Assembly: GCF_030684315.1 (NCBI RefSeq)
Contig: NC_081359.1
Coordinates: forward strand, 36,900,470-36,964,469
DNA: 64,000 nucleotides
From: Stegostoma tigrinum
Taxonomy: Eukaryota
Direction of reading: 5' to 3'
A program made the translations under genes and the position numbers. The notes below the pieces were generated by a model. It ran no database searches and was not told the DNA's origin. It saw nothing but the letters and a program-made list of their open reading frames with translations. Shown here piece by piece: positions 2,085 through 60,700 of the stretch. Positions within the stretch are counted from its first letter, which is position 1; each line of letters opens with the position of its first letter.

Positions 2085-3101
2085 AAAGTGGAGCTGACAA
2101 AGCATAGCTGGTCAGACAGTATCTGAGGAGCAAGAAAGTCAACATTTGAGGATGAAACTGGATCGGGCAGGGGGACGGGAGCCCAGAGATAAATAGAGGG
2201 AGGTGGGTGGGGTTGGGGAACAGTAGGTGAGGTGGAGATAAGTGGATGTAAGTAGGCCATTATTATAGTTGGTCAGTGGGTAGGGTGGAGTAAATAAGTG
2301 AGTTAGAAGATGGACTGGTGGGGGAAGGAGAGATTTTGAAGTTGGTGAAGTCAATAATCATTGGGCTGTAAACTCCTAAGGCTTTGTTCCTCCAGTTTAC
2401 ATTTGGCCTCATGCTGACAGTGGAGGAGGCCCAGGCTGGACATGTCACAAGGGGAGTGGGAAGGTTGATGGCAACCAGAAGGTGGTGTTGATTGGTCTGT
2501 GCAGTGCACAGATGCTCCTCAAACTGGTCCCCGAGTCTGTGATTGGTCCCCACGATATAGAGGAGATCACATTAGAAGCAATGAGTACAGTAGATGAGGT
2601 TTACTGAGGTGCAGGTGAATCTCTGCTGAATTTGGAAGGATTGTTTGAGGCTTTGGATGGAGGTGAGAGGAGCAGGTATAGCGCCTCCTGCAGCTGCAGA
2701 GAAGAATCTGGGTATTGTGGAAGGGTTAGTTGGGAGTGTGGAGCTGACGATGGAGTTGTGGAGTGAATGGTCCCTGCTGAAAGTGGACAGGGTTGAGGAG
2801 GAAGAGAGATAGTAGGAACTGCAGATGCTGGAGAATCTGAGATAACAAGGTTTAGAGCTGGATGAACACAACAGGCCAAGCAGCAGCAGAGGAGCAGGAA
2901 AGCTGATATTTCAGGCCTAGAATGACAGCTTTCCTGCTCCTCTGATGCTGCTTGGCCTGCTGTGTTCATCTAGCTCTACACCTTGTTATCTAGGGTTTGA
3001 GGAGGGAAATATCTTTTTGGTGGTGGGGTCTAATTGTTAGTGGTGGAAATGTCGGAGGATGATGCATTATGTTTGGAGGTTGGTGGGGTGGTGCGTGAGG
3101 G
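2085..3101 (-). mobile_element. Decayed Penelope-like element (GIY-YIG region and 3' end), interrupted at 2804-2991
   Basis: Minus-strand ORF fragments RDHSLHNSIVSSTLPTNP, QRFTCTSVNLIYCTHC and RLGDQFEEHLC are homologous to the intact PLE ORF at 26204-27568. Confidence 0.85.
2804..2991. mobile_element. Miniature fold-back PLE 3'-end insertion
   Basis: Minus arm 2804-2920 (with tail) is joined to plus arm 2921-2991 (no tail). Flanked by agggttgaggaggaa (2789-2803) and agggtttgaggagggaa (2992-3008). Confidence 0.8.
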
Positions 3102-3959
3102 CCTCACATATATGTGACTACAATACATCAAATCAAATCATTGACTGTAAGATTATTGCTGCTTGTATGACAAGTGGCAATTTCAATTACAAAAGGCAAA
3201 TGCAGTTTTTTTTAACTTTTGTTTACTTTAGTTACTCCTGAATTAAAGTGAATGCTTTGAAGCTATTAATGGATATCTAATATATGATGATCCCACATTG
3301 AACATAAACAAGATGCTGAGCTACACTGGGACTTGGAAAAGGATGCAAATTACTTTGACTAAGATGGGATGTTGCGAAGGAAGGACATACTGTGAGACTT
3401 AATCTTAAAGAATCATAAATATAAGTCTATGAAATTGTACGTAGTCCCAGCCATGCCACCAATGTGCCTTGAGAAATGACCATTTGTGGTTGTTGTCCCA
3501 CTAAGTGCACAGTGAAGGGCAACCCTAGATTGCTAGTTCTTTGCTGGATGCTTGGCATAAATTCAAATATAAAACTGTCATCCTGAGATACTGGCAGTCA
3601 AAAGAATGTCTATTCACAATGAGCAGGGGAATACTATGGGAGACGTGCAGTATAGATGTGGTACATAGAAAATGAGGCACGTTTCAGAAAATAAAACAAG
3701 AAAACTCTTTAGGTCTCAAGGATAGAAACCTTTCAAAATGCATCACTTAACACTTGTCTGGATTAAACTCTGCCCAACTTTCCAACTGATCCATATCCTG
3801 CTGTATCCTTTGATAACCTTTCTCATTGCCCACAACTCCACTAACTTTTGTATTGAAAGTTTATGCTAGAGACAAAACAATGTCACTTCATCTATTAACC
3901 GTTTTATGGTAGTCCCAATAATTCACAAAATAGTAATGGTTTGTAAGAATATTTTGAAG

Positions 3960-5345: not shown

Positions 5346-5973
5346 TCCATTTGTCCGTTTTTAAATTCAAATCACAGATTAAAGCCCAGGAGTTGAAATT
5401 TCACCTGCTTTTATGATCAAACAAGTTTATTGCCAAATTACACAACAGCTAATCTGTTACTGGTCCATTTTCGTATAAAATAAAAACATTGGGCAAGTAT
5501 TTAGGATTGAACTGACTTTATTTTCTGTCACCTAATCATATCTTAAGCATGACCCAAGACACTTCAAGCATAACCAAACCCAATTCATAATTTATAAACT
5601 GCTTCTGCAGTGTAGTTATTGTTATGTGGACAGATACAGCATTTATTAAAGTAAGTTATTTCGAAAACATTATAGCAAATGATCTACTCAAGCAGTCATA
5701 ACCACAACCATTCAAAGCTGCAAACTTTATTGAAATTTGCTATTTTCTAACAATTTATTTTCCCTCAACTACTATTCCTATTGCTGGTAGTTTCTACAAA
5801 CAAAAGACAAATTGATTGAATAGAACATGTACATGGCGGCCACAGATCATATCGCGAATCTAGATTTCAGTCGCATCATTCAGTTTTTGCAGGCTTGTTT
5901 AATTCGAGAGCTTTGCATTGTGATGTTAAAGGTTTCGACTTTCTTTCCATTGCAAAGATGGCCAGGAGTTTCT

Positions 5974-6384
5974 TTGGAAGAGTCTTCACGGTAGAGTTAT
6001 AAGTCACTTGGAGATAGCAAGAACTGAGCAGGAGAGTGGATATTTTGGGCCTAGACCCTTCATCAGGAACCTTGCCCAGTCCTGATGAAGGGTCTAGGCC
6101 AGAAATGTTAACACTCCTGGTCGTCTGATGCTGCCTAACCTACTGTATTCCTCCAACTCTACACTGTATTGACTCTGGCTCCAGCATCTGCAGTTATTGC
6201 TATATTTGAGTGACTTATAACCCAACAGTGAAGGCTCTTCCATGAATGGCCCAGTCCTGAGGAATTATCCAGGCCCTAAATGTTGACCCTCCTGCTCCTC
6301 TAATGCTGCCTGACATGCTGTGTTCCTCCAGCTCCGCACTGTATCAACTCTGATTCCAGCACCTGCAGTTCTTTCTATCTCGCT
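5974..6384. mobile_element. Non-coding composite element of three hammerhead-bearing PLE 3'-end units (retrozyme-like)
   Basis: 16-bp TSD atggccaggagt(t/c)tct at 5958-5973 and 6385-6400. One inverted unit (5976-6068) plus two direct units starting gcccagtcctga at 6074 and 6249. Confidence 0.75.
6082..6110 (+). ncRNA. Minimal hammerhead ribozyme motif (slightly degenerate)
   Basis: CTGATGA-A-GGGTCTAGGCCA-GAAATGTT. Confidence 0.55.
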
Positions 6385-15525: not shown

Positions 15526-17359
15526 AAGGCTTTTCCAAAGATCTGTAGCTCAGTTTGTGGATGAGGTTGTTGACTTGCTCGCCGAGCTGACTGATTTTCA
15601 TACAGATATTCCCACACAATGCTAGGTAACATCATCAGTGCAGTCTCTGATGAAGTGATGTTGTTCTACTCAACTTCGTATTTATGTGATCTGGTCGTTT
15701 ATGTTGGGTCGTGTTATTTCCGGTTCTGTTCTGCGTGGGTTTGTACATATGGTCTAATTCCACATGTGTGTTAATTGCATTACTGGTTGAAAACCACTCC
15801 TCTAGGAATGCCCATGCACGTCTGTGGTTGGCTTGAGCTAGGATGGTCACATTGTCCCCGTTAAATTAATGACCTTCGTTAACCAAATACACTGAAATAA
15901 GGGAAAGTTTGTCATGATGTTTTGCTGCTATTTAGTGTTTGTGTATCCTGATGGCTAGTTTCCTTCCAGTCTGGCCGATGTAACATTGGTTGCAGTCATT
16001 GCAGGTATTTTGTAAACTATGTTGGTCCTGCATGTCATGGGTTTGGGATCTTTGGTCCTTGTGAGTGTTTGTCATAATGTAGTTGTAGTTTTGTGTGCTA
16101 CCATGACCCTTCGTGGTTGTAGGAGTCTTGTTGTCAGTTCTGATACCTTCCTGATGTCCAGTAGTGTGACCAGTGCATTGGTACATACTGTATCCCTGCG
16201 GATGAAGCTTTTGGAGTATCTGTGTTAGCAAAGACCTTGTGTTCTTTCTCCTTCCTGTGTACGGCAGTGAGTTGTAGTCCATTTAAGTAGTGTCCTTACA
16301 TAGCTTTTTTTGTTGGACATTGGGGTGATTGCTGTGGAAATTGAGGATTTGTTTAGTGTGGGTTGCTGTCCTATATACTGTGGTTTGGAGCTCCTCATTG
16401 GTCATTCCTGGCATCCGGAAATGCAAATTGATTGCTGTCTTCCTCTCGTCTCATAAATTTGATCCCAATGAAAATGTTGTTGATGAGACGGTGTGTCTCT
16501 TCTAACTTGATGCATTTAATGATGACAAAGGTGCTGTCCACAGATCCCAGCAAAGCTGCATTAGGATACTATTCAAACAGGTCACAACCCACTGCAATAC
16601 GCCAGAACTATGCAGGAAGGAAGAAGGGCACCTATACAAAGTTTTTGCTAACAATGTATATACCAACAGTTTCATCCACAGGTGCCTACTAGATAGAAAA
16701 TGCCAAAAGGACACAGTATACCCCAATGGACTGGCACTCTTTATCATGAATATATAAGGACTGACAGAAACTTCTTGACCACTAGGTACCATGGTAACAC
16801 ACAAACCTATAGCTACTCTACAACAAACACGCACAAGGACCAAAGATCCCATATGCATGACATGCAGGACCAAAGTAGTTTACAAAATACCTAGTGATGT
16901 CTGCAACAAATGTTACATTGGCCAGAATGAAGGAAACCAGCCATCAGGATACATGAACACCAGCAGCATCAAAATGACACGATAAACTTTGCCTCATTTC
17001 AATGTACTCGGACAATGAAGGCCATTAATTTAATTGGGACAACGTGACCATCCTAGCTTAAGCCAACCACAGACATGCATGGGACTTCCTAGAGGCCTGG
17101 TTTTCAACCCGGAATGCAATCAACAAACATGTTGAATTAGATACCATACACAAACTCATGCAGAAGAGAGTCAGAAATAACACGACACAACTTAACAAAC
17201 TCTTATCTCTGATATTATTTTAACAAACTGAATTATATTAATACCAAATGGAGTAGAACAACATTGCTTCATTGGAGGCCACACCGAAGATGCTAACCCA
17301 GCATGGTGATGAAGTGTCTGGATGATAACCAGCCAGCTCAGCAAGCAAGCCAACAACCT
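15526..17359. mobile_element. Fold-back Penelope-like element, second family (family B)
   Basis: Minus arm ~15526-16520 and plus arm ~16530-17359 both encode GIY-YIG motifs (CNDCNQCYIGQTGRKLAIRIHKH; VVYKIPSDVCNKCYIGQ; RAWAFLEEWFS). CpG-decayed TSD gattactttcagtgt (15511-15525) / gattacttttggcgc (17360-17374). Confidence 0.85.
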
Positions 17360-20090: not shown

Positions 20091-20094
20091 GCTT

Positions 20095-21510
20095 AGAGTC
20101 ATAAAGTAATAGTGTCTTACAGATCCATCGGCCCAAACTTGTCCATGCCGACCAAATGCCCATCCACACTAACCCCATTTCCGTGCAATTGGTCCATATC
20201 CTTCTAAACCTTTCCTATTTATGTGTTCATCCAAATGCCTTTTAAATGTTAATGTACTGTTGGCAACTCATTCCATATCTGTACCATTCTCTGTGTAAAA
20301 AACTTGCCCCTCAGGTTTCCATGCATTCTTTCCCCTCTTACCTTAAACTGATGCCCTCTAACCTTCAATTCCCCAAGCCTGGGAAAAAGACTGAGTGAAT
20401 TCACCCACTCCATGCCGCTCACGATCTTATAAGATACCTCCTCAGTCTCTTATGCTCTAAAAAAAAGTCCTAGCTAGTCCAAAGTCTCCCGATAACTCAG
20501 CCCCTTGAGGTCCTGGCAAAATCCTTGTAAATTTTTTTCTGTACTCTTTGCAGTTTAATAGCATCCTTCCTGTAGCAAGGTGACCAAAACTGAACACAAT
20601 TCTGTGCTCCTGAGATGCTGCTTGGCCTGCTGTGTTCATCCAGCCTCACATTTTATTATCTTACAATTCTCCAAGTGCGGCCTTTCCAATGTCCTGTACA
20701 ACTGCAACACAACTTCTCAACTTCTATACTCAATGCCCTAACTGATGAAGGCCAGTGTGCTAAAAGTCTTCTTCACTGGCCTGTCTACCTGTGATTCCAC
20801 TTTCAGAGAACCGTGCACCTGCACTCCAAGCTTCCTCTGTTCCACTATACTGCTTAAGACGCTATCATTCACGATGAAATGCTTACCCTGACTTGACTTT
20901 CCAAAGTGTGACACCTCACACTTGTCTATATTAGACTCCATTTGCCATTTCTCAGCCCACTTCCCCAGATGATCAAGATCCTGCTGAAATTTCTGATAAC
21001 CTTCCTCACTGTCCACGGTACCACCTATTTTATTGTTTTCTGTGAACTTACTAGTCGTGTCTCATCCAAATCATTGATATAGATAACAAACAGCAGTGGA
21101 TCCAGCACCAACTCCTGAGACACACCACTAGTCACAGGCCTCCAGTCCAACAAGCATTCTTCCACTATTACTGTCTGCTTCCTACCATCAAACAAATTGT
21201 GTACCCAGTTTACGAATTCTCCCTGGATTCCAGGTGACCTAACCTTCCAGATCAGCCCACACTGTGGAACCTTATCAAAGGCCTTACTGAAATCCATATA
21301 GCCAATGTCTACCATCCTGCCCTCATCAACCTTCTTGACCACTTCATCAAAAAACTTTAACAAATTTTTGAGGCATGATCTCTCATGCATGAGGTCACCC
21401 TGACTTCTAATCAAACCTCGTCTTTCTATATGCTTGTATATTTTATCCTTCAGAGCCTTCCTAAGTAACTTGCGTACCACAGATGTTAAAGTTATTGGTC
21501 TCTCATTCCC
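20095..21510 (-). mobile_element. CR1/HER1 LINE, 5'-truncated ORF2 to 3' end
   Basis: ORFs contain YMDFSKAFDKVP, VTSGVSQELVLDPLLFVIYINDLD and QQDLDHLGKWAEKWQM. A 3' tail is present at ~20095. Confidence 0.92.
20604..20662 (+). mobile_element. 59-bp PLE 3'-end micro-insertion inside CR1
   Basis: gtgctcctgagatgctgcttggcctgctgtgttcatccagcctcacattttattatctt matches the PLE 3' end near 33747-33805. 8-bp TSD acaattct at 20596-20603 and 20663-20670. Confidence 0.85.
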
Positions 21511-25580: not shown

Positions 25581-25944
25581 TTTCCATCTTTTCAATGTCT
25601 AGTTGCCCACTTCATTTCGAAATTTGTCCCGACATTGATATGGAGTAGAAACTTATGCAATAGAAGTATATTGAATATTCGCTTCAGTCCTTTCATTGTT
25701 CTGTCAACTGTGCGTAATATTTGTTAGAAGCAGAAGAGCCTGACAATATATTGGCTCCTTTCTCCAGAGATCTGAAGTTAGATAACAATTTTTCCAACTC
25801 AGTTGAGTAACCTTAAGAACTGTCCACCATCACCTATGGATTGAACCATTTATATTTACACTAAAAACATGCTTCCAATTATTAGGTAATAAAATGTGAG
25901 GCTGGATGAATGCAGCAGGCCCAGCAGCATCTCAGGAGCACAAA

Positions 25945-25980
25945 AGCTGACGTTTCGGGCCTAGACCCTTCATCAGAGAG
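25945..25980 (-). ncRNA. Minimal type-I hammerhead ribozyme motif (best-preserved copy)
   Basis: The minus strand reads ctct-CTGATGA-A-GGGT-CTAG-GCCC-GAAA-CGTC-agct. This gives a full catalytic core, a 4-bp stem II, a loopless palindromic ACGT stem III and a GUC cleavage triplet. Confidence 0.75.
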
Positions 25981-26203
25981 GGGGATGGGGTGAGGGTTCT
26001 GGAATAAATAGGGAGAGAGGGGAAGGCGGACTGAAGATGGAGAGAAAAGAAGATAGGTGGAGAGGAGAGTATAAGTGGGGAGGTAGGGAGGGGATAGGTC
26101 AGCCCAGGGAAGACGGACAGGTCAAGGAGGTGGAATGAGGTTAGTAGGTAGCTGGGGGTGTGGCTTGAGGTGGGAGGAAGGGATGGGTGAGAGGAAGAAC
26201 AGG

Positions 26204-27568
26204 TTAGGGAGGCAGAGATAGGCTGGACTGGTTTTGGGATGCAATGGGTGGAGGGGAAGAGCTGGGCTGGTTGTGTGGTGCAGTGGGGGGAGGGGACGAA
26301 CTGGGCTGGTTTTGGGATGCAGTGGGGGAAGGGGAGATTTTGAAGCTGGTGAAGTCCACATTGATACCATTGGGCTGCAGGGTTCCCAAGCGGAATATGG
26401 GTTGCTGTTCCTGCAACTTTCGAGTGACATCATTGTGGCACTGCAGGAGGCCCATGATGGACATGTCATCTAAAGAATGGGAGGGGGAGTGGAAATGGTT
26501 CGCGACTGGGAAGTGCAGTTGTTTATTGCGAACCAAGTGGAGGTGTTCTGCAAAGCGGTCTCGAAGCCTCCGCTTGGTTTCCCCAATGTAGAGGAAGCCA
26601 CACCGGGTACAATGGATACACAATACCACATTGGCAGATGTGCAGGTGAACCTCTGCTTAATATGGAAAGTCATCTTGGGGCCTGGGATAGGTATGAGGG
26701 AGGAGGTGTGGGGGCAAGTGTAGCATTTCCTGCGGTTGCAGGGGAAGGTGCCGGGTGTGGTGGGGTTGGAAGGCAGTGTGGAGCGAACAAGGGTGTCACG
26801 GAGAGAGTGGTCTCTCTGGAAAGCAGACAAGGGTGGGGATGGAAAAATGTCTTGGGTGGTGGGGTTGGATTGTAGATGGCGGAAGTGTCGGAGGATGATG
26901 CGTTGTATCCGGAGGTTGGTGAGCTGGTGTGTGAGAACGAGGGGAATCCTCTTTGGGCGGTTGTGGCGGGGGCGGGGTGTGAGGGATGTGTTGCGGGAAA
27001 TGCGGGAGACGCGGTCAAGGGCGTTCTCGACCACTGTGGGGTGAAAGTTGCGGCCCTTAAAGAACTTGGACATCTTGGATGTGCGGGAGTGGAATGTCTT
27101 GTCGTGGGAGCAGATATGGCGGAGGCGGAGGAACTGGGAATAGGGGATGGAATTTTTGCAGGAGGGTGGGTGGGAGGAGGTGTATTCTAGGTAGCTGTGG
27201 GAGTCGGTGGGCTTGAAATGGACATCAGTTACAAGCTGGTTGCCTGAGATGGAGACTGAGAGGTCCAGGAAGGTGAGGGATGTGCTGGAGATGGCCCAGG
27301 TGAACTGAAGGTTGGTGTGGAAGGTGTTGGTGAAGTGGATGAACTGTTCGAGCTCCTCTGGGGAGCAAGAGGCGGCGCCGATACAGTCATCAATGTACCG
27401 GAGGAAGAGGTGGGGTTTGGGGCCTGTGTAGGTGCGGAAGAGGGACTGTTCCACGTAACCTACAAAGAGGCAGGCATAGCTGGGGCCCATGCGGGTGCCC
27501 ATGGCCACCCCCTTTGTCTGTAGGAAGTGGGAGGAATCGAAAGAGTAGTTGTTGAGGGTGAGGATGTG
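26204..27568 (-). CDS. PLE polyprotein, C-terminal part: RT (QTKGVAMGT, RYIDD), linker, GIY-YIG endonuclease; no true start codon
   Basis: About 450 codons with no stop. Motifs KGVAMGTRMGPSYA, LRYIDDC, FLDL, CNRRKCYTC and NVVLCIHCTRCGFLYIGETKRRLRDRFAEH. The ORF-track start codon lies in the TSD/flank. Confidence 0.85.
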   Translation of the reverse strand, partial: HILTLNNYSFDSSHFLQTKGVAMGTRMGPSYACLFVGYVEQSLFRTYTGPKPHLFLRYIDDCIGAASCSPEELEQFIHFTNTFHTNLQFTWAISSTSLTFLDLSVSISGNQLVTDVHFKPTDSHSYLEYTSSHPPSCKNSIPYSQFLRLRHICSHDKTFHSRTSKMSKFFKGRNFHPTVVENALDRVSRISRNTSLTPRPRHNRPKRIPLVLTHQLTNLRIQRIILRHFRHLQSNPTTQDIFPSPPLSAFQRDHSLRDTLVRSTLPSNPTTPGTFPCNRRKCYTCPHTSSLIPIPGPKMTFHIKQRFTCTSANVVLCIHCTRCGFLYIGETKRRLRDRFAEHLHLVRNKQLHFPVANHFHSPSHSLDDMSIMGLLQCHNDVTRKLQEQQPIFRLGTLQPNGINVDFTSFKISPSPTASQNQPSSSPPPTAPHNQPSSSPPPIASQNQSSLSLPP

Positions 27569-32090: not shown

Positions 32091-32118
32091 GACATTTCGG
32101 GCCTTGACCCTTCATCAG
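32091..32118 (-). ncRNA. Minimal hammerhead motif
   Basis: The minus strand reads CTGATGAAGGGTCAAGGCCCGAAATGTC. Confidence 0.6.
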
Positions 32119-33711: not shown

Positions 33712-33739
33712 CTGATGAAGGGCCTAGGCCCGAAATGTC
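33712..33739 (+). ncRNA. Minimal hammerhead motif
   Basis: CTGATGA-A-GGGC-CTAG-GCCC-GAAA-TGTC. Confidence 0.65.
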
Positions 33740-36694
33740 AGCTTTTGTGCTCCTGAGATGCTGCTTGGCCTGCTGTGTTCATCCAGCCTCACATTTTATT
33801 ATCTTGGATTCTCCAGCATCTGCAGTTCCCATTATCTCTCGTCCAATTTGTTAGTTTTTTGCCCATATCCCTCTCAAACATTGCTATTCATATACCTATC
33901 CAGATGCCTTTTAAATGTTGTAATTGTGCCAGCCTCCACCACCTCCACTGGTAGCTCATTCCATACATGCACCACCTTCTGCGTGCAACAGTTGCCCCTA
34001 AGGTCCCTTTTAAATCTTTCCTCTCTCACCTTAAACCTATGCACCCTTGTTTTGAATTTCCCTACCCTTGACAATTCACCCTACCAATGCCTCTCATGAC
34101 TTTATAAACTTCTACAAGGTCATCCATCAGCTTCCAATGCTCCAGGGAAAATAGCCCCAGCCCATTCAGCTTCTTTCAATAGTTCAAATCCTCCAACCCT
34201 GGCAACATTCTTGTAAATCTTTTCTGAACTCTTTTGTGTTTCACAACATCTTTCCTATAGCAGGGAGGCTAGAATTGAATGCAATATTTCAAAAGGCATC
34301 TAATCAATGTCATATGTAGCCATAACATGATGTCCCAGCTCGTATACTCAATGTATTAACCAATAAAGGTAAGTGTATCAAATGCCTTCTTCACTATCTT
34401 GTCTAACTTGGACCCCACTTTCTGGTCCTCTCCTGATTTTCCCTACTAAACTGCAGCATTACCTAAATTAAACCCCTCTGCCACTCCTCAGCACATTTGC
34501 CCATCTGACCAACAGTGATTCCATTCATTTCCTAGATGACGTAGCCCACAAAAATGGGATACAAGCCGATCACCAGAAAATGAAGGCAGTCAAAGACTCT
34601 GCAATGTCACACATCAATGAATGAACTTCAACAATTTCTGGGTTTGATGAATCGATACTTTTACCAGAAATCTTTTCTGTCATAGAATCTTTATGAATCT
34701 CTTAAAGAAATCATAAGATTGGTATTGCTATACGCAACAATGGCTGGCATTTCAGAAGATTAAGGACATGCTAACCTCCACTGGTGTCTTAGCTCATCAT
34801 GTGCTATGGTTGTTGCAGCAGACATATCAACCACAGTTATTGGTGTGCACTTTTTTTCAGGAACGGAAAACATTATTGAAAACCCTGTACTATGCTTCAA
34901 GGGTGATAGCAGAAAGCCAAAACACCAGTGTTGAGAAAGAGGCATTAATAGTTATATGCTGTGTCTCAAAACAATAATTGCAACTGATCACAAAACCTTG
35001 GTCTCCCTGCTCGATGAAAATGACTTTTAAAAAACACCTCTTCATATATAAAACTTTTGCCTCAGATGCAAACAATTCTCAAGCAAGATTCAATATGTCC
35101 AAGACACATACCAATCATTGGCCAACACTGCTTTACGAATTATGGTTGATGCACCCACATAAAATGACTCTAATTTTGGGGTTGAAGCACTGTCTTCCCG
35201 TAGAGAATGTATAATCATGGCCAGTCTCTATAGAAAAACTTAATTAGAAAGGAACAAAGCAAGGATCTTGAGTGCTTTATTACGTAAAAGTATTGCATCC
35301 CAAAAAGACTTGGAGTTCAGCCCATGGAATGTATCATAAAGTCTTACTTTAAACACAGTTTTCAATTCTTTATTGTCATGAATTTATTGGTTTTCAATGA
35401 TCGACTGGTAATTTCCCCTTCAGTCTTTAAAACGTTCACCAAACATACTTAGGCATAACCAAGAGCAGGGTAAGAGCATGTGAGACCATCTGGTGACCTA
35501 GAATCTTGAAAGAGTTAGATGACCAATTTATCAATGAGATACATTTGCTATGTACAGTTATGAATGACAGGAACTTTTCATTCCTACTGAATTTCCTGAT
35601 AGATCTTGGATCCATTTGGGCATGGAACTACTTTTGTATATCCTTTAGAGAAGTATTTCCTTCCTTGATTTGGCCATGTTACTCCAGACCCAGAGCATTA
35701 TTGACAAGGTGAGCCCAGCATTCTGGTATTGGTGGATTCAAAGCAGGCAACAGTGAGGCAGTGGCTGTGGAGATTTGGCCTAATGGCATAAGATGGTGTT
35801 TGAAGAGTGGCATCTTTGATGTTGGTGGGGCCCAATGTAGATGATGGCAAGTCATTGGAGGAGGGATGGTGGTGTGGGTGTCGTTAATGAGCTGGCTTAG
35901 GGCTGATGGATTCTGTTTCAGCTGTGTCTTCCTAACTTTTCTCTTAGTCTTAAAACTGTTCAAAATGGCACAGGATTGTGGTGATATTGGAAAAGCTTTT
36001 CACTGTATCTTATTATTTTTCTCACTATAAAATACATGTGACAATAAAATCATTCATTCAAGGTGCTGTAAATGCTGTCAGGCATAGGTAACAAATACTG
36101 GCGTAATCAGCATACCGGCATCCTATGAACGTTTTCTTCAATTGTCAATGTGGTCAATTGTTACTTTAGATGGTTTGAAGCTAACAACTTGAAATCAGCA
36201 AACACTGAAAGGATTATCACAGCCATACAGAAGATGTTTGCCATTCACAGTATTCCAGATGCTGTTACTTCCGACAACAGACCATCGTTTGCTAATGAGA
36301 TATTTTAAACAATTGCAATGATTCTGGTCTACCAACAAATTACAAACATACCTAGCAGCTCTGCTGAAAATTTGTTGAAAGTAAATCATATTTTTCCTGC
36401 TCTTTTCTGCTCATTCACCACTCTAATCAAATTTCTTGTTCCCATCAAATCTGATGGTAGGGTACAAATTGAAAATTCAACTCCCTACTTTGTTCAGCAG
36501 CTTGATTCCAAGAAAACGAATAGAGTGATTCAGATTGTTTCTGAGAAAGAATGCTATTCCTGGAGTAAGCACCTGCGAGACTGCAATAATCATTTACACA
36601 TCTTAATGTTGGTTGTATCAGATCATAGCCAACTGGTCTAGATAACAGGAAGGCCACAGTCAGAGAGTAACTCTGTTTGGTCTGGAAGGCCATA

Positions 36695-40255: not shown

Positions 40256-40521
40256 TGGGTATTTGCCACTTTGTCCTACAAAGGAGAGGAATGTGAGCCT
40301 GAGGAATGGTTTTTTAATGATATAGCTACCAGAGATAAAAGGTTGGCAGTGTGATCCTAAGATCTGATTGTGAAGCTGACAACGGTGTTAGGTGTGCGAG
40401 AGTCACATGAAACATTTTGGTGTTAGGTTTACGTCATGAATGAAAAAAGATTGTTGGTCTGTGAGTGTTGGGGTGTCATGAATTGCGCTGGTGATTTAGT
40501 TAGTCAGGTATGTGATCTGGA
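39587..40521. repeat. ~213-bp inverted repeat (39587-39799 vs 40308-40521)
   Basis: Direct base-by-base comparison gives about 9 differences over ~213 nt. Confidence 0.92.
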
Positions 40522-41112: not shown

Positions 41113-43330
41113 GAGACAACACAGTGTGGAGCTGGAGGATCACAGCAAACCAGGTAGCATTAGAGGAGCAGAAAAGTTGACATTTCGGGTTGGGACCCTT
41201 CTCCTGAATTGGGAGGGGGAAGGGAGCTGGGAGGTAAATAGTGGGAAGACGGGTGGAGCTGGGGAAAGGTAGGTGGGATGATAATAGGTGGATGCAGGTA
41301 GGGAGTGGTGAGGATTGGTCACTGTATGAATGGAGTGGATAGTTGGGAGACAAGGTGGATGGAATATGTCTGATCAAGGAAGTGGGAATGAGAGGGAGGT
41401 TTGGACATGGGATGAGGTCAGGGGTAGGGAGATTTTAAAACTGATGAATTCTACATTAAGGCCATCAGGCTGTAGACTCCCGGGGTGAAATATGAGGTGT
41501 TGCTCCTCCAATTTGTGTGTGGCATCTTTGTGGTACTGGAGGATCCCCAGAATGAACATGTCATCAAGGGAGTGGCACATGGAGTTAAAATGGTTGGTGA
41601 CTGGAAAGCATTGTCAATCATCTGTACAGAGCACAGATGCTCCACGAAACTATCCCTGAGTCTGCGCTTGGTCTCACCGATGTGGATGAGGCCACATTGG
41701 GAGCAACAGATACAGTAGACCAGATTGGATGTTGTGCAGATAAACATCTGTCAGAAATGAAAAGCTTTGGAACTTGGATGGAGGGGAGAGATATAGGGGC
41801 AGGTGTAGTGTTTTCTGCAGTTGCAGGGAAAGATGCCGAGTATGGTAGGGTTAGTTGGGTGTGTGGACCAGATGAGGGAGTCATGGAGTGAGCAGTCCCT
41901 ACAAAAAAAGCCAGATAGGGGTGCGGAGGGAAATATCTCCTTGGTCGTGGGGTCAGATTGTAAGTGACGGAGGTGGCGGAGGATGATATGCTGGATGCAT
42001 AGGTTGTTGGAGTGGTTAGTAAAGACCAGCAGGATTCTGTCTTTATTTTTGCTGGGGGAAGGGAGTTTGAGGGCAGAAGTGCGGGAAATGCAAATGATGT
42101 GGTTCAGGGCCTTTTTGATTCGAGGAGGGGAGATGTTGCTGTCCTTGAAATAGGCGTATATCCAGGATATCCAGGAGTGGGACACTTCATCTTGGGAGCA
42201 GATGCAGTTGAGGTGAAAGAATTGGGAATAAGAGATTACATTCTTGCAGGAAGATGGGTAAGAAGAGGTGTAGTCCAGGTAGCTATAGGAGTCGGTGAGC
42301 TTGAAATAGATGTCGGTGTTGAGGTGGCCACCAGAGGTGGAGATTTAGAGGCCCAGGAAGGAGAGCGAGGTATTGGAAATGGTTCAGATGAATTTGAGAT
42401 TGGACCGAAAGGTGTTAGTAAAGTTGGTGAACTGTTCAAACTCCTCATGGGAGCATGAGGCAGCATCAACATAGTCATCAATGTGGTGGAAGAAGAGGTG
42501 AGGAATGGTGCTGGTGTGACAGTGGAAAAGGGACTATTTTACATATCCTACGATGAGGCAGGCGTAGTTTGGACCAATACAGTTGCCCATAGCCACCCCT
42601 TTGGCTTGTAGAAAGTGGGAGGAGTTAAAGGAGAAGTCATTCACTGTAAGGACGAGTTCTATTAAGTGGATGAGGGTGTCAGCGGAGGGGGACTGATTGA
42701 GCCTCTGGGAGAGGAAGAAGCAGAGAGCTTTTAGGCCAGCTGCATGGGGGATACAATTGTGCAGGGATTGGATGTCTGTTGTGAAGATAAGGTTTTGAGG
42801 GCCAAACAATTGCAAGTCTCTGGTCATCAAAAATGCCTTAAAATCTCCCCACCCTTGGCCTCATCCCATGTCCAAATCTTCCTTTCATCCCCACGTTCCT
42901 GAACTGTCTATCTTCTTCCTCACCTATGCGCCCTACCCTGCCCACCAACCAATTCCCACTCATCCCCTACCTGCATCCAACCTCTCACCATCCCACCTAC
43001 CTCTCGCCAGCCCCACCCATCCTCCCTCCCACCACCTTGGCCTGTCACAACCTGTCCATCTTCTCTCACACTTATCTGCGCTACCCTTCCCACTTACCAA
43101 CCCCCACCACTCTCTACTTGCATCCGTCTATCACCATCCTACTTTCCTTTCTGACCTACCCCCCCCGCCATCTCTATTTACTTCCCAGCTCTTCTTTCTC
43201 CCCATTTCTGAAGGGTCACGACCCGAAACATCAACTTTCCTGCCCCTCTGATGCTGCCTGGCCTGCTGTGTTCCTCCATCTCCATCCTGTGTTGCCTCTG
43301 ACTCCAACATTTGCAATTCTTGCTATCTCC
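41113..43330. mobile_element. Older fold-back Penelope-like element (family A-related)
   Basis: Minus arm ~41113-42828 (QAKGVAMGNCIGPNYACL; NLVYCICCSQCGLIHIGETKRRL) plus plus-strand 3' arm ~42837-43330. Degenerate hammerheads near 41179 and 43208. Confidence 0.88.
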
Positions 43331-45553: not shown

Positions 45554-45681
45554 TTTCTGAAGAAGGGTTTTGACCCAAAATGTTAGCTTTCCTGCTCCTC
45601 TGATGCTGCTTGGCCTGCTGTGTTCATCCAGCTCTACACCTTGTTATCTCAGATTCTCCAGCATCCACAGTTCCTACTATC
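45554..45681 (+). mobile_element. Solo PLE 3'-end unit (hammerhead plus tail)
   Basis: ctgaagaagggttttgacccaaaatgttagc...cctactatc, flanked by the perfect 12-bp TSD tctgaatgatta (45542-45553, 45682-45693). Confidence 0.85.
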
Positions 45682-47989
45682 TCTGAATGATTAGCCAAAT
45701 GCCTTTGGGCCTCCAGAAAGGAAGGTGTTGTCCTTTGTCTGCGGTAAAATCATCTAAATCTTGAAGGAAACAAATCCATTTTAATCTCATTAGTTGCTGT
45801 AAGCTGTGGTGTTTAACCAATGAGTCAGTGACCTTATAGTTTGTGAATGGGTTGCCCTGTGAACCCAGGATTGAAGTGAAAAGCACTTGAAGAGCGAAAG
45901 AGATCAATGAACAGCAAGTCCTGGCAAGCCAAAAAGATCATCTCAGTGAATCCCGTGGACTTGGTCAATTAACTGCCTCCCAGATTTGCTATTCTACCCA
46001 GAGCAACAATGCTTTTGCATCTATCTGTATATTTCTGTATGTGAGCATATGGGGCATTTTGTAAGTGGGTTACAATTTTAACTTGTGCAGTTCTATGTCA
46101 TTATTGCATAGTTTACATGTGTTAGAATCGGTTTATTTGTAATAAATAGTAATCCTTTTAAGTTCAGAAAACTGATTTGTGTCTTCTGTCAACCTGCATC
46201 CAATTTGGTGAATCTTAAATACTTTTTAAAAAAACTTTAAGTTTTGTCACAACTTCAGCATGTGGGGCTTGATTTCCAGTGTGCTACACCAGTGAGGTGT
46301 AACAATGGACTGCCAGTTTTTAAACAGCTAAAGATCTCTCTGATTCCATGAAAATCAAGCCTGGTCTTCCTTTGCTAGATTTCCTCTCGTGCCACATTTA
46401 AGAACTTCTTCTTCTCATCTTCCTGTGCCTTCCAACAGCTTGGACATTGTATATTAGAGAAAGTTTTCCACACTTCACCAGAAGCAGATGCAAGGAGTTC
46501 ATACTTAGTTGCCTCACAAAAATGGCATTCAATCAACATATTGGGTACTAAACCTTCAGATATCTAGTTTAGAACCTCCAGACAAAGTAGGCAATTAACA
46601 TTAGGACCAAACATTGGATGCTAAATCCAAATTTTTAAAGAGAAGTACTTTTACACAATATTTACCACCTGATTTCAAGAGAGAACCTGATAGCTTCAGA
46701 GGGTTAGGGAATGAAAGTATGTGTTAAATTGTGATGAATTCAAGTAAAGAAACGGGATCATTCTTTGTGCAAATCCAACTGTAACAGACAGCCAAACACA
46801 TAATTAATAAACCTTTTTGATGTTCAATTTTACACATTTTTCATTTTTTGTAAACAAAGTAATTGGCTAGAACACAAAGATGGCTGTCAAAATAGGACCC
46901 TGCACTTGCACAATAGACCCAGTAGTATCAGTTCCTCGTGACAGATGTCTCTCAGCAAGAATGTGTCTGTGTGTGTGCAGTCAACATCACTGCATCCTAT
47001 GCGTAATAACATTACTATCCATGCACTTGCCTTACTGAGGTGATATTTCCTTTTGTCCTGGGAGAATGTGACAGAGAATATCTGGGAATGGGGTATAGGC
47101 TGGAAGCAAAGCAAAGGCCAAAATTGAGGGTAAAGCTTACTAAAGTAGCATTGGCCATTGAGAGGTGTTCGCTCCTCATGGTGGGTGAGAGAGATATGGC
47201 AGCTTCACAATCAAAATCTCATGAAATAGGTTACCTTTCCTCTTGGTAGGCTGCTGCATCTGTCACTTACCAGCAGACATACCAATGCTTGGCAGCGTTT
47301 CTGTGCATGCCTCTTCTCATGCCAACCAGAAACAGGGTTTCTATGATAGACAGTGTTTCATTAATTGCTGGCTTTCTATGATAATTTGGTGTTAGAGGCA
47401 TGTTGAACATTAAGTAGCACCTGGATCAGAAGCTTTGGGTTTGGGTTTTTACTCCAAGATTTGGCAGCCGAGGATGTCGCCTTCAAAATATGGTCAATCA
47501 TGTGTATTACCAATCCCCAAAGTCTTACATCACATGGCCATGTCTGGCAGTAAGTTCCATGTGATGGAGAGAGCCTCTACCTTTATTATCCAAAGCTTTT
47601 GTCTATAAAAGTGTGTGTTGCCGCAACAACTTGAACTACCTGAATGGCAACTACATTCTAACATATGGATAATTTTCCCACAGAATCAATTCTTCAACAA
47701 TCTTATGACATTGATCATGAAGGCTGTGTTAATAGAGATCAAAGGTACTACAAAATGGTTATTTTTGATTTATTGATATGGCTGATTACTGTGATGTGGG
47801 CTGCAGATAGAACAAATGCAGGCATGTCAAAGAAGAAGCATTCTGTGAAAGATAAGAATGCTTTCTGCTGTATATTCATATTGATTACAAAAGAAAAGGA
47901 AGTATGTCTGACAAGTTCCCTTGGTGGGAAGTAAATTGATCCCTTATGACCTCTAGTGTATGTTTTAAAAACAGATTAATTTTGAAAGT

Positions 47990-48234
47990 AATGTAGAAAA
48001 TACTGGAGAAACTCAGCAGATCTGACAGCATTTATGGAAAGAGAAACAATTAATATTTTGAATCTGGTATGATTCTTTTACAGAGCTCTTCAAACTCTTC
48101 TAAAGATGCATCGTATTGGACACAACACATTAAGCCTGTTTCTCACTCCCTAAATGTTACCAGACCTGCTGAGTTTCTTCAACAACTTTTGCGCTTGTTT
48201 CAGATTTCCAACATCCGCAGTTTTGTGCTTTTAT
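47990..48234. mobile_element. Old miniature fold-back PLE 3'-end element (family C)
   Basis: ctggagaaactcagcagatctgacagcat (minus arm) mirrors gttaccagacctgctgagtttcttc (plus arm, with tail). Flanks ttaattttgaaagt (47976-47989) / ttaattttgtgagt (48235-48248). Confidence 0.65.
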
Positions 48235-48519: not shown

Positions 48520-48785
48520 CATGACCTGTCTGTCTACCCCCCCCCCCCCCCACCACCACTTATTCACCCCTTCCACCTCACTGGCCAATACCCACCACTG
48601 CCTACCTGCACTCATCTATCACCACTTCACCTACCTTCCCCAGCCCCACCCTCGTCTATTTATTTCAAAGGTCCCTTCCCCCTCCCCCATTTCTGAAGCA
48701 GGGTTCCGACTGAAACGTCAGCTTTCCTGCTCCTCTGATGCAGCCTGGTCTACTGTGTTCCTCCAGTTTCACACTGTGCGATGTC
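48520..48785 (+). mobile_element. PLE 3'-end fragment with degenerate hammerhead
   Basis: C-rich 3' region, then ctgaagcagggttccgactgaaacgtcagctttcctgctcctctgatgc. Confidence 0.75.
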
Positions 48786-55151: not shown

Positions 55152-57747
55152 GGTAACAAAGTGTGGAGCTGGATGAACACAGCAGGCCACGCAGCATCTC
55201 AGGAGCACAAAAGCTGACGTTTCGGGCCTAGACTCTTCATCAGAGAGGGGGATGGGGAGAGCGTTCTGGAATAAATAGGAAGAGATGGGGAGGCGGACCG
55301 AAGATGGAGAGAAAAGAAGATAGGTGGAGAGGAGAGTACAGGTGGGAAGGTAGGGAGGGGATAGATCAGTCCAGGTCAAGAAGGCGGGATGAGGTTAGTA
55401 GGTAGGAAATGGGGGTGCGGCCTGGGGTGGGAGGAAGGGATAGGCGAGAGGAAGAACAGGTTAGGGAGGCGGGGACAAGCTGGGCTGGTTTTGGGATGCA
55501 GTGGGGGACGGGGAGATTTTGAAGGTTGTGAAGTCCACATTGATACCATTGGGCTGCAGGGTTCCCAAGTGGAATAGGAGTTGCTGTTCCTGCAACATTC
55601 GGGTGGCATCATTGTGGCACTGCAGGAGACCCACGATGGACATGTCGTCTAAGGAATGGGAGGGGGAGTTAAAATGGTTCGCGACTGGGAGATGCAGTTT
55701 TTTATTGCGAACTGAGCCGAGGTGTTCTGCAAAGCCTCCGCGTCGTTTCCCCAATGTAGAGGAAGTCACACCAGGTACAATGGATACAATATACCGCATT
55801 TGCAGATGTGCAGGTGAACATCTGCATAATATGGAAAGTCATCTTGCGGCCTGGGATAGGAGTGAGGGAGGAGGTGTGGGGTCAAGTGTAACATTTCCTG
55901 CTGTTGCAGGGGAAGGTGCCAGGTCTGGTGGGGTTGGAGGGGAGTGTGGAGCAGAGAAGAGAGTCACGGAGAGAGTGGTCCCTCCGGAAGGCAGACAAGG
56001 GTGGGGATGGAAAAATGTCTTGGGTGGTGAGGTCGGATTGTAAATAGCGGAAGTGTCGGAGGATGATGTGTTGTATCCGGAGGTTGGTGGGGGGGTGTGT
56101 GAGAACGAGGGGGATCTTCTTTGGGTGGTTGTGGCAGGGGCGGGGTGTGAGGGATGTGTTGTGGGAAATGCGGGAGACGCGGTCAAGGGCGTTCTCAACC
56201 ACTTCTCGGGATAAGTTGTGGTCCTTGAAGAACGTGGACATCTGGGATGTGCGGGATTGAAATGCCTCATCCTGGGAGCAGATGCAGCAGAGGCAGAGGA
56301 GTTGTGAATAGGGGATGTAATTTTTGCAGGAGGGTGGGTGGGAGGAGGTGTATTCTGGGTAGCTGTGGGAGTCAGTGGGCTTGAAATGGACATCAGTTTC
56401 TAACTGGTTACCTGAGATGGAAACTGAAGGTCCAGGAAGGTGAGGGATGTGTTGGAGATGGCTCAGGTGAACTTGGGGTTGGGGTGGAAGGTGTTGGTGA
56501 AGTGGATGAACTGTTCGAGCTCCTCTGGGGAGCAAGAGGCGGCGCCGATAAGTCATCAATGTATTGGAGGAGGAAGTGGGGTTTGGGGCCTGTATAGGTG
56601 TGGAAGAGGGACTGTTCCACGTAACCAACACAGTGGTCAAGAACGCTTTTGACCGCGTCTGCCGCATTTCCGCAACACATCCCTCACACCCCGCCCCCGC
56701 CACAACCGCCCCAAGGGGATCCCCCTTGCTCTCGATTACCACCCCACCAACCTCCGGATACAACGTATCATCCACCGACACTTCGGCCATCTACAATTCG
56801 ACCCCACCACCCAAGACATTTTTCCATCACCAATCTTGTCTGCCTTCCGGAGAGACCACTCTCTCCACGACTCCATTGTCTGCTCCACACTCCCCTCCAA
56901 CCCCACCACACCCAGCACCTTCCCCTGCAACAGCAGGAAGTGCTACACTTGCTCCCACACCTCCTCCCTGACCCCCATCCCAGGCCGCAAGATGACCTTC
57001 CATATGAAGCAGTTGTTCACCTGCACATCTGTTAACGTGGTATACTGTATCCGCTGTACCCGGTGTGGCTTCCTCTACATTGGGGAAACCACGCGGAGGC
57101 TTGGCGACTGCTTTGCAGAACACCTCAGCTCGGTTTGCAATAAACAACTGCACCTCCCAGTCGCGAACCATTTTAACTCCCCCTCCCATTCCTTAGACGA
57201 CATGTCCATCATGGGCCTCCTGCAGTGCCACAATGATGCCACCCAAAGGTTTCAGGAACAGCAACTCATATTCTGCTTGGGAACCCTGCAGCCCAATGGT
57301 ATCAATGTGGACTTCACAAGCTTCAAAATCTCCCCTTCCCCCACTGCATCCCAAAACCAGCCCAGCTTGTCCCCTCCCCCCACTGCATCCCAAAACCAGC
57401 CCAGCTCGTCCCCGCTTCCCTAACCTGTTCTTCCTCTCATCTACCCCTTCCTCCCACCTCAAGCCGCACCTCCATTTCCTACCTACTACTAACCTCATCC
57501 CGCCTCCTTGACCAGTCCATCTTCCCTGGACTGACCTATCCCCACCCTACCTCCCCACCTATACTGTCCTCTCCACCTATCTTCTTTTCTCTCCATCTTC
57601 GGTCTGCCTCCCCCTCTCTCCCTATTCATTCCAGTTCCCTCTCCCCATCCCCCTCTCTGTTTGTGCTCCTGAGATGCTGCTTGGCCTGCTGTGTTCATCC
57701 AGCTCCACACTTTGTTATCTTGGATTCTCCAGTGTCTGCAGTTTCCA
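55152..57747. mobile_element. Fold-back Penelope-like element (family A)
   Basis: Minus arm 55152-~56626 (to the RT YIDD region) plus plus arm ~56627-57747 (GIY-YIG ORF 56836-57423). TSD ctatctggatgcat (55138-55151) / ctatttggatgtgt (57748-57761). Confidence 0.92.
55216..55243 (-). ncRNA. Minimal hammerhead motif
   Basis: The minus strand reads CTGATGAAGAGTCTAGGCCCGAAACGTC, with one stem II mismatch. Confidence 0.6.
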
Positions 57748-60700
57748 CTATTTGGATGTGTCACAGCTTGGTAGGGCTCCTGTTTTGCCCAAGCCCGCAA
57801 GAAATTACAGTCTGTTGTGGTAGTAGCCTGGACCATCTTGAAAACCAGCCTTCTTTCCATTGACTCTGTCTACACTTCCTGCTGCCTCATGAAAACAGCC
57901 AAAATGACTAAAGACCCCTCTCACCCCAGTTATACTCTCTTCCAACCTCTTCAACAGACAGAAGATACAAAAGATTGAAAACGTACCAACAGATTTCAGA
58001 CCGAATATCAGTATGTACCCTTTCGTTGGCCGTCGGCCATTTCTAAGTATCAGTCTTCTTGTTGCCTTCCTCATCTTCGATTTATGCACTACAGATTAAC
58101 CCTGTCTGATGTTTACCCAATAGACAAAACATGCTGAGGGAAGTGTAAAGCAGAAAGTGCTACATGTCAGCAAGTAGCACTTACGGGAAGTTTGAACATT
58201 ATGCACAACTGTTAACACACTGTTGAGTTCCTGCAGTTCTGCTGATGGTGGTTCCGACAAGCCTCACTATCTCTGACCATTTTCCTTGTCCTCCAGCTTT
58301 AACTGAACTGAGAAAGGCTCACAGTAAAAGTGGGGAGAAAGAGTAACAGAAATGAGGAAGAAGAGACTGGGTGCTGGAAAAGGTCAATAACAACTGGGAC
58401 AACAATCTGTATTTAAGTCATCCCTTTTAAAGCAGTAACATGTCACAACGTGCTCCACCAGCTTGTTATTCATCAAATCTTAACATTGGCCCACAATTGA
58501 CTCACATTTCACAACAGATGCTTAGCATTTCATCACTGGCTTATGAACTAAGAATTTATATGCTATTGTATGTAACCTGTATGTGCTCGTATGTAGCCCT
58601 CTTTTTGTTTTCAAGTGCTTTTGTCATTTAAACATGATTAAAAGTTTCATTATTTGTGTTTTTTGAAAGTTTTCTGTACGTTTAATTGCAGACTGAAATG
58701 AGAAAATTACTTTTCGAAAACAACAGATTGCCGGAAGATTGCTGAATGCTTTGAAAGCAAGAAACCTGACACTGATAATATGATTTACACAGCTGCTGAT
58801 CCCAGCAATGATTGAAATCTAGTTTGTGAATGAGCTGGAACCAAAGGATTGTGTACAAATGGAGTTTTAGTTGGTCACATGTAACTGATTGATCTATGGA
58901 CAAGTGGCTGGTTATTGATGGCAAAAGCCTTCTCCCTGTCAACAACTGTGCAACTGGTTCTCAGGTAGCTGAACAATTTTGGGCAGTGAATAAGATACAG
59001 AGAAGCTTTCAAACCTCCAACAGCTCAGGAACCGTATCTGTTCTCTGCTGCAAAACCAACTTTAAACCTGAAGGAAACCAGTCTAATTTTCCTTCAGCAG
59101 TTATATAAGCAGTGATTTTTAATTAATAAGTCCAATGCCTTTAATATTTGTTAACCAGCCACCCTGTGTCTCCTGTAAACCAATGTCGATATTCACAGAG
59201 GGAAGACTGAGAAGCACCATTCTGATCAGCAAAAGTGTCTCAGCAGATCCTATGAAAAGAGACCACTGAAATGCTTTCCCAATTTTCCCTTCATGCATAA
59301 CACCCATTTTGGTTTCTATTCTTTGTCTATCATTGAGTATGCGTGTAAGAGGAACTTAATATTTGGCCTGGATTTTCAACGAGTACATTTATATGCTGAC
59401 AGTTCATAAGTATTTACTTGCAGCGAGAATCTACTTACTTGTAATACAAGCTAATTCCTGTTAATTACAGAAACTTTGTCCATGATTTCTGTCAATGTTG
59501 GCCTGAAAATCAGATAAATTTTATGTATCTACTCTATGACCTTTTTAAAATCTTTAAATTTTATGTTGACCCAGGAAATAGTGAGGTTTGATTTCCAGTG
59601 TGCCAACCAAGTGAAGAGTAACAATTGCACATCTATTACTGAAAAGCATGTCACTAACTTAAAGAAAATCTACAGAGTTACAGTGGTTAAGAATAGAAGT
59701 TACATGTGAAGATGAAAATGAGACTAGTTCCTAATAGTGTTGCATACCCAGCATCCTTGAAGATTTTCTTTCTCAAGCAAAAGAGTTAAAACATGAAGTC
59801 ACATTTGGTATCTGTGATGGGTTCTCTAGTTGAATAGCTAGAGGATGCTCCCACATATAGACTTAGTGTGCAGAAGGTTCCAGGACTGAGGGAAGGTGCC
59901 TTTACTTCACTTTTGTGGCATTATGGGCTGTGACACTTCATTGCTTGGGTCAATGCAGCAGTTCATTAAGTGTGTTTTACTTTCTTGTTGCTTTCCACGG
60001 TTTCCCTGTCGAGCAGAAATTGCTGCTTCAAGTTGCCTTACTCATATTGGTCAACTGGTTCTTCTTTCATTGACTGCACTCAATCAGCTTCATCATAACC
60101 TCACACAATGGATGAAGATGTTAATTTTGATTGATCCTTGTTCCAGAAACAGCTGATGAGATGGGATTAAGTCAGAAATGCTCAGATGTATCAAACATTT
60201 GCCAGCAGTTATTCATGATAAAAGAGAAATTTGTAAGTGATTGAGACAATTAACAATGTTAGTTCATACTGATAAACCCAGCGTAGAAAGGACATTAGGG
60301 TGGTGGCAACACTCCAGCACAAGCATTAGCTAATAGCAGCTGATTCCACAATACAAACAGCAATCTTGGTCAATACTTTAACCCAGGGAAGTATTGAAGG
60401 AGTTATCTTTGTAGACCTGTTACACTTGGCTTGATGGTTAAGTGGCAATAAATGACTCAGAGGAAATAGGAAACAAAAATGGACATCCGACACAAAAATT
60501 CCTCTAGCTATTCAAATACTATTGAAACATTCAGCAGGTAACTTTACAGTGTTGTAGCTGACCCTTACCTGCCTTCTGAAATAGCCCAGCAAACCACTCA
60601 TGTCAAGGCTAATTAAGAATTATCAACAAGCACTGACTTTGCCAGTGACACACAAATTGTGAAAGAATGAAGTAATACACGAAGATTGAACAATGCTACA

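Follow-up and report, generated by a model that had tools for sequence, protein, structure and literature searches.

Endonuclease (EN)-bearing (EN+) Penelope-like elements (PLEs) are inserted as units that optionally carry a tail of 30–40 bp at one end (Craig, 2021; PMC8557442). An earlier report describes a 31-bp tail of Pen2a_Av, present optionally on one of two inverted pseudo-long terminal repeats (pLTRs) inside the target-site duplication (TSD), and proposes self-priming (Arkhipova, 2013; PMC3846280). In vitro, both target strands were nicked and extended by Poseidon of Anolis carolinensis (PAc), with two internal start sites of reverse transcription, the tail as the stretch between them, and no strand difference in start site (Frangieh, 2024; PMC11167929). 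The anatomy and the basic cause of the tail are already published. In the parts of these papers available to us, the tail is called "often" present or "optional" and no counts are given (PMC8557442; PMC3846280), the origin of tandem and inverted PLE structures is named as an open question (PMC8557442), and the steps following first-strand priming are left unvalidated (PMC11167929). A count of PLE tail classes was not found in the literature searched, and some older papers may hold one. Here, we analyzed PLE insertions with two inverted arms (fold-backs) in a 64,000-nucleotide stretch of Stegostoma tigrinum (NC_081359.1, positions 36,900,470 to 36,964,469; hereafter, the window) and counted paired arm ends in a second animal. 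The tail was confined to one arm in all TSD-flanked pairs counted in that animal. This count, the refutation of a fixed spacing between the two ends, and a testable model constrain the mechanism of known PLE behavior and do not describe a new system.

Self-BLAST of the window and alignment of the element ends showed six inverted PLE pairs with their 3′ ends facing outward, at the coordinates proposed by an earlier note on this DNA. As the note had also described, each pair had one arm with the tail (tail+) and one arm without it (tail−) (6/6; p at most 0.016 under independent choice per arm). The offset between the two ends was 36 nt in the fold-back at 2804..2991 (I1), 38 nt at 15526..17359 (I2; 44 nt with only nine exact TSD bases counted), 35–39 nt at 32029..33840 (I3), 32–34 nt at 41113..43330 (I4), 32–39 nt at 47990..48234 (I5), and 28–34 nt at 55152..57747 (I6), with ranges given because the element end overlaps the TSD. 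The small one-sided offset, which had been placed at approximately 32–39 nt in all six, was therefore real, and its range was 28–39 nt. Scoring of the flanks of each pair against 1500 random flank pairs showed significant TSDs for five of the six fold-backs (p = 0.002, 0.012, 0.002, 0.003, and 0.003 for I1, I2, I3, I5, and I6, respectively), and that of I4 fell short (p = 0.055), in agreement with the five recognizable TSDs and the weak one at 41113 noted previously.

I1 is a mini-insertion of family A (assigned below to the Neptune type) nested in an older PLE copy, with a tail+ left arm, a tail− right arm, a 12-bp TSD with one mismatch, and a fold point within the palindrome of hammerhead stem II. 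I2 belongs to family B (assigned to the Poseidon type, without a CxxC linker); its tail+ left arm extends to the catalytic motif of the reverse transcriptase (RT), its right arm is tail−, the junction is located near 16540, and the TSD comprises nine exact bases. I3 (family A) consists of a tail− left arm of 663 bp and a tail+ right arm of 1159 bp that are 95.5% identical and meet near 32682–32685 with approximately 2 nt of microhomology, within a 17-bp TSD with two mismatches. I4 is an old relative of family A with a long tail− left arm, which spans RT and EN to about 42850, and a short tail+ right arm. The tail− left arm and tail+ right arm of I5 (family C, homologous to family A) are enclosed by a 14-bp TSD with two mismatches. 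I6 (family A) has a longer, tail− left arm that reaches 56636, a tail+ right arm, and an 11-bp TSD with one mismatch; its arms are 9% divergent and differ in the copy number of a 39-bp array. A further feature of the I6 right arm is the loss of 29 nt (57637–57660), which took out most of the hammerhead. The tails lay where the note had quoted them, at 33802..33840 on the forward strand in family A and at 15526..15563 (38 nt) on the reverse strand in family B. The tail and 3′ unit of family B lacked homology to those of families A and C, whereas family C was homologous to family A across the whole 3′ unit, including the tail; thus, only family B has an unrelated tail, and the three families of the note carry two unrelated tails, not three.

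All six fold-backs were real, and they were not the full set, as nine single-arm 3′ ends and a seventh TSD-flanked fold-back (I7) had been missed. I7 (5970..6384) is flanked by a TSD (5958–5969 = 6385–6396) of 12 exact bases, or 16 with one mismatch (p = 0.002). Its left arm comprises a unit with an internal deletion, the tail end, and a 38-nt spacer, and thereby runs approximately 38 nt beyond the tail. Its right arm is arranged as unit 1, tail, spacer, unit 2, and tail, with a period of 175 nt. The tail sequence is present in both arms, and the spacer occurs just twice in the window. I7 may have arisen in one step from a tandem RNA, or a further insertion may have been added to an existing symmetric pair.

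For an independent count, we used a second animal (G001). This 12-Mb record is filed as a bacterial metagenome-assembled genome and holds hundreds of small PLE-rich animal contigs, which are host contamination. The sample comprised 120 stretches picked by EN similarity or hammerhead pattern. A first pass, in which the hammerhead motif guided the choice of pairs without regard to tails, yielded 23 outward-facing same-family pairs. Sixteen of these had a TSD of at least 10 bp and all 16 were asymmetric, as were two pairs in (TA)n and one without a TSD; the remaining four rows (L131, L125, L129, and L137b) were excluded. Two further passes, one by BLAST and one with a family library, brought in another 15 TSD-flanked PLE pairs, again all asymmetric (15/15). 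In total, 31/31 TSD-flanked PLE fold-backs in G001 were asymmetric, together with 5/5 in (TA)n and two without a TSD; in eight pairs, the tail was defined solely by the TSD of the pair itself. The ends overall comprised 47 tail+, 45 tail−, and 5 intermediate. Independence predicts that at most half of the pairs combine one end of each kind, and the probability of 31/31 is then about 5e-10 (0.5^31). Because 31/31 pairs were asymmetric while the ends split near 50:50, independent start-site choice was rejected in G001. The check on tail classes that the note had suggested, made here in G001, gave bimodal ends and rejected binomial independence, and the non-independence of the two arms it had claimed is supported in both animals (6/6 and 31/31).

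A choice made separately by each arm, or separate neighboring insertions with the 6/6 in the window owed to chance or to the reader's selection, is therefore scarcely credible. It would agree with the absence of a strand difference in vitro (PMC11167929), the oversight of I7 by the earlier note, and one neighboring pair in L094 that is tail+ on both sides and without a TSD. Against it stand the near-even split of ends in G001, the first-pass choice of pairs blind to tails, and the fact that the same pipeline did report symmetric TSD-flanked repeats in G001, none with a PLE protein or convincing hammerhead.

The remaining rows were treated as follows. The symmetric repeats L099, L100, L146, and L118a/L195c/L202 were rejected as PLE pairs, as they were without a PLE protein and a convincing hammerhead. 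L125 and L129 consist of 41-bp arrays that share their flanks and, on visual inspection, did not qualify as PLE ends, and 3703/7745 in L094 was rejected as a pair, being without a TSD and with 7745 having a partner of its own. L131 (contig end) and L091 (arm ending inside EN, without a TSD) were left out. The asymmetric pairs L083b, L107a, L188, L134b, and L120 were not assigned to PLEs and stand outside the count. Among L001–L080, 34 inverted pairs were found, of which a single one (L019, from another assembly) qualified as a PLE pair, with a TSD and both of its 3′ units, and was also asymmetric; L064 was without a TSD, and L075 ran off the contig end. Hairpin selection would act at the inner junction and should not favor asymmetric outer ends.

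The second animal also bears on the distance between the two ends. The earlier note had proposed that one arm starts at the RNA 3′ end and the other at a site fixed 35–38 nt upstream, as a geometric constant of the ribonucleoprotein (RNP). This proposal is consistent with window offsets of 28–39 nt in two families with unrelated tails and with the published tails of 30–40 bp (PMC8557442). However, offsets in G001 ranged from 15 to 140 nt, with 8/31 within 30–40 nt, and recurred within families (52–60 nt in four pairs, 101–103 nt in two, 63–64 nt in two, and 30–32 nt in two). Because the offsets vary so widely and are fixed within families, a fixed RNP ruler was refuted; G001 tails reach 52–112 nt, unlike the 30–40 bp described for canonical EN+ PLEs (PMC8557442), and with such family-fixed values the constant could survive only as a clade-specific one. 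The start sites are set by the RNA of each family, although no significant structure emerged when eight 3′ units and tails were folded (z −0.75 to 1.62).

The placement of one start at the RNA 3′ end fared no better, as both PAc start sites were internal (PMC11167929). Contigs of four runs of the window's species (X1, X9, X15, and X20), which provide ends and joints and no arm pairings, were aligned to 33500–33900. In X1, the 3′-side loose ends among those listed peaked at 33804 (at least 617 records) and 33839 (at least 1311 records) with unique flanks (agreement 0.37–0.38), and the family A ends are therefore discrete. In three of the four runs, the loose letters past 33839 began with the same few bases, which suggests that the unit continues beyond the tail and that the tail end is neither the RNA 3′ end nor, as the note had it, the true end of the 3′ unit. 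Taken as a whole, the fixed-distance proposal is very improbable.

Arm lengths bear on whether the second arm is a copy of the first. Among 15 clean cases (20 examined), the tail− arm reached further 5′ in eight, including I4 and I6, and the tail+ arm in seven; therefore, the second arm was not copied from the first complementary DNA (cDNA). Priming once at the tail+ site, followed by folding back of the cDNA and a copied strand that stops short of the tail, should place the tail− arm within the tail+ arm, and this is contradicted for the long pairs. As the fold point of several short pairs is a palindrome close to the hammerhead (e.g., I1), such a snap-back could still hold for some mini-palindromes, and we give it very little weight as the general origin of the fold-backs. 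Exactly one tail per TSD-flanked pair, with a spacing constant within each family, is incompatible with independent priming, with a fixed ruler, and with cDNA snap-back.

In L1 twin priming, the RNA of the element is primed from both target nicks, which yields an inverted arm in one TSD, with internal priming aided by microhomology; the two arms cover parts of the RNA that do not overlap, one of them starts in the poly(A), and the position of the internal site varies. Unlike this process, the two PLE arms are copies of one 3′ unit, started at two fixed sites, with no poly(A). L1-type twin priming was rejected as the identity of these insertions, given overlapping arms and no poly(A).

The target base preference was alike at both junctions, with A/G at −2 (24/29 and 22/29) and C at −1 (12/29 and 17/29), and the TSD median of the G001 pairs was 12 bp. 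A shared preference and TSDs of approximately 12 bp are expected from two like nicks, and these data, with the bimodal ends, support the note's proposal that each nicked strand primes once and that the two starts lie at discrete sites. The target motifs did not distinguish the first nick from the second. Microhomology at the tail− junction averaged 1.79 nt versus 0.77 ± 0.19 nt by permutation and was absent from 10/28 junctions. Two pairs started off-site: the short arm of L187 begins 116 nt upstream at a 6-nt microhomology, and the long arm of L133 extends 140 nt into the next unit. The present elements and PAc are alike in the use of both strands, two start sites with the tail between them, and AT-rich targets. 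In the available part of the PAc report, the strands were read separately, pairing was not addressed, and no start-site homology was reported (PMC11167929), whereas here paired arms were counted and the G001 junctions exhibited modest microhomology.

The structures observed are head-to-head, 5′-truncated arms in one TSD. Their tail+ and tail− ends are discrete, each TSD-flanked pair combines the two kinds, and either arm can be the longer. We regard it as slightly on the probable side that these are two-ended EN+ PLE insertions in which both nicked strands prime on one RNA and the arms end at different family-fixed sites. The endonuclease would cut the target with a stagger of approximately 12 nt. 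The first 3′-OH would prime at the upstream (tail−) site, aided by 0–6 nt of microhomology, and the tail would remain single-stranded. The second 3′-OH would then prime at the downstream (tail+) site, copy the tail, and displace the first cDNA, and the 3′ ends of both cDNAs would be joined. If the first priming instead occurred at the tail+ site, the upstream RNA would be held in a hybrid and a single-arm tail+ copy would result. With priming in this order, upstream first and downstream second, pairs with two tails or none would be forbidden without a fixed ruler, and the off-site cases L187 and L133 and one reading of I7 fit this order. The ordered model would explain why symmetric pairs are missing, why arm lengths vary freely, and why offsets are fixed within families, as well as the off-site cases; the single shared RNA and the priming order are what we infer from these features. 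A stricter version, in which double priming on one RNA from two structure-defined sites is obligate, the second polymerization displaces the first, and exactly one tail is always left, with tail-to-tail joints also produced, is conceivable but falls somewhat short of an even chance. If true, it would be a transposition mode distinct from the target-primed reverse transcription of R2/L1 and from L1 twin priming, and would account for the long-unexplained inverted repeats of PLEs.

The same 31/31 pattern would be produced by an asymmetric dimer, in which two protomers with fixed roles start at both sites simultaneously, on one or two RNAs, and the protein–RNA complex sets the single tail. PAc is predicted to dimerize (PMC11167929), and two templates would account for the divergent arms of I6 and for discordant sites between arms. 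However, the target preference is symmetric at both nicks, offsets of 15–140 nt and the off-site starts of L187 and L133 speak against a rigid geometry, and the frequent single-arm copies of both kinds would require an extra rule. We consider such a dimer rather unlikely.

Contig joints bear on a further route. In X1, 5 of the 15 joints listed connect 33801–33804 with 33836 or 33839, the two sides lying on opposite strands and sharing no letters; these five coordinate pairs occur in 31, 26, 60, 36, and 54 contigs (at least 207 in total), lack intervening target DNA, and suggest direct tail-to-tail joints of tail− and tail+ ends. They would fit a route in which a joined tail−/tail+ molecule (possibly self-primed, and shaped as a hairpin or dumbbell whose loop is the tail) is opened at the joint by EN and attached to the target. 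The tail has been attributed to EN-mediated resolution (Craig, 2021; PMC8557442), and sense self-priming was described as giving tail-to-tail repeats (Arkhipova, 2013; PMC3846280). However, both target strands prime cDNA directly at two sites in vitro (PMC11167929), one arm would have to be converted from RNA to DNA, and joint counts are biased, as a symmetric joint would form a perfect palindrome and might drop out in assembly; moreover, no tail-to-tail joints were among those listed for X9, X15, and X20. Resolution of a joined intermediate is improbable as the source of the pattern.

Several observations weigh against ordered double priming on a single RNA. The decisive counts come from the G001 animal and not from the window's genome. 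In G001, two pairs without a TSD (L086 and L137b) are tail− on both sides; their downstream flanks are also duplicated in inverted form (about 690 bp in L086 and 215 bp in L137), and these pairs may be larger inversions, 3′ transductions, or assembly fold-backs. A third pair without a TSD, L128b, does not combine a tail+ and a tail− end (3 and 14 nt). I7, with the tail on both arms, is also compatible with a symmetric pair that received a further insertion, and the model does not directly predict the tail-to-tail contig joints. In the available part of the PAc report, there was neither a strand difference in start site nor homology there (PMC11167929). Arm haplotypes were mixed. At 11 sites in 5/23 pairs, the allele of each arm was also found in other copies, and the I6 arms, which differ in array copy number, are 9.0% apart, as far as from other copies (9.1–10.3%). 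On the other side, 18 variants were private to both arms, in 8/23 pairs, and no consistent second donor for discordant arms appeared in the haplotype comparison. The haplotypes lean toward a single source, although two templates may have been copied.

To place the elements, we examined the longest open frame in the window. This 456-aa frame (26204–27574, reverse strand) had a weak RVT_1 match (E = 0.0059, below the cut-off) and 86 longer relatives with identities of up to 53%, which contained RT and partly GIY-YIG Pfam domains; no named reference proteins were among these matches. In an alignment of 36 proteins, C322, C325, and H344 of the CCHH residues in GIY-YIG were invariant and H360 was conserved in at least 90%, both cysteines being within the GIY-YIG motif. 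The RT–EN linker CX4CX2C (C279, C284, and C287) was likewise invariant and fits the pattern CX2-5CxxC, which, together with CCHH, indicates Neptune or Nematis (PMC8557442). On these sequence criteria, families A and C are classified as Neptune or Nematis type, family C (47990) being placed by 3′ unit homology to family A alone. Of the two names, we use Neptune on the basis of motifs. Six-frame translation of family B (15526–17359) showed thumb motifs through to GIY-YIG without a CxxC linker, in a degenerate sequence with Pfam silent on one piece; because it is non-homologous to families A and C and lacks the linker, family B is assigned to the Penelope/Poseidon type. Judged from sequence, the window fold-backs thus comprise five Neptune-type and one Poseidon-type elements, which are ordinary PLEs and no new element. 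They have the traits of EN+ PLEs: a PLE-type RT followed by a C-terminal GIY-YIG in one open reading frame (ORF), 5′ truncation, a tandem or inverted layout with TSDs (5/6 significant), and an optional tail at one end, described as 30–40 bp and here 28–39 nt with discrete contig peaks. Alignment of PLE proteins gave no match in the viral contigs searched, and the family A end, searched as DNA patterns, had none in the viral or metagenome contigs searched.

The 3′ unit of family A contains a minimal type I hammerhead motif (33712..33739, forward strand) with a visible core and stem II and a predicted cut after 33739; an Rfam search returned no hammerhead match for 33712–33739, and its hits were confined to chance matches with hairpin-shaped RNAs of the miRNA type. 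A number of contig joints connect to 33740, which directly follows the predicted cut, and hint at hammerhead-cut RNAs as templates in vivo. In the available part of the PAc report, no reads were found at the hammerhead cut site (PMC11167929), whereas the predicted site recurs here at contig joints. Two window stubs also start within a few bases of it (33739–33740). Non-LTR (long terminal repeat) retrozymes (bioRxiv 10.64898/2026.07.22.740005; PMC4209133) resemble I7 and L133 in their short tandem hammerhead units without an ORF. Unlike retrozymes, I7 and L133 have only two units and are located in TSD-flanked fold-backs. Where retrozymes have at least two tandem units with complete hammerheads, I7 has two units 175 nt apart, and the core of the second is degenerate. 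The same 6-nt direct repeat is located at both boundaries of the family A tail (33796–33804 and 33830–33837). The mid-tail (33816–33823) is complementary, in both family A and family C, to a segment lying upstream of the tail− site (33754–33764), and folding was not significant.

The nine single-arm 3′ ends in the window comprise three tail+ and six tail− ends, three of them with their own TSD. The tail− family A insertion at 25884..27563 (reverse strand) has its own TSD of 12–13 bp and carries the longest open frame, with the C-terminal half of RT, the CX4CX2C linker, and GIY-YIG with CCHH. A tail+ insertion at 45555..45684 (forward strand) starts just upstream of the hammerhead core and has an exact 12-bp TSD. 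Two stubs on the forward strand are tail− at 20604..20662, with an 8-bp TSD read by eye, and tail+ at 60844..60935, with no TSD seen. Older copies include a tail− copy at 48568..48782 (forward strand) and a family A relative at 2081..3099 (reverse strand), which has its tail− end at 2081 and is interrupted by I1. The window also contains other non-LTR RT fragments at 7869–10061, 21025–21561, and 38939–39397, which their motifs suggest to be RTE-like and CR1/L2-like. A pair of 214-bp inverted repeats with 95.8% identity at 39587–40521, for which no PLE relation was found in the searches made, is probably a DNA transposon derivative.

Other repeats in G001 had similar one-sided ends. A repeat family without a recognizable hammerhead or ORF (L083:6060–6924, L107:1755–2381, and L188:598–2561) exhibited TSD-flanked one-sided extensions of 32–53 nt. 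A transfer RNA (tRNA)-related repeat (L120:13890–14468, G001:C275; tRNA-Thr by ARAGORN) formed an inverted pair that is flanked by a 12-bp TSD and extended by 46 nt on one side, and looks as if it had been moved by PLE machinery. In L112 and L114 (G001:C448 and C653), four to five PLE-like units follow one another head to tail, approximately 3.8 kb apart. Their EN matches contain two in-frame TGA codons each, recalling the selenocysteine-coding PLEs mentioned in PMC8557442.

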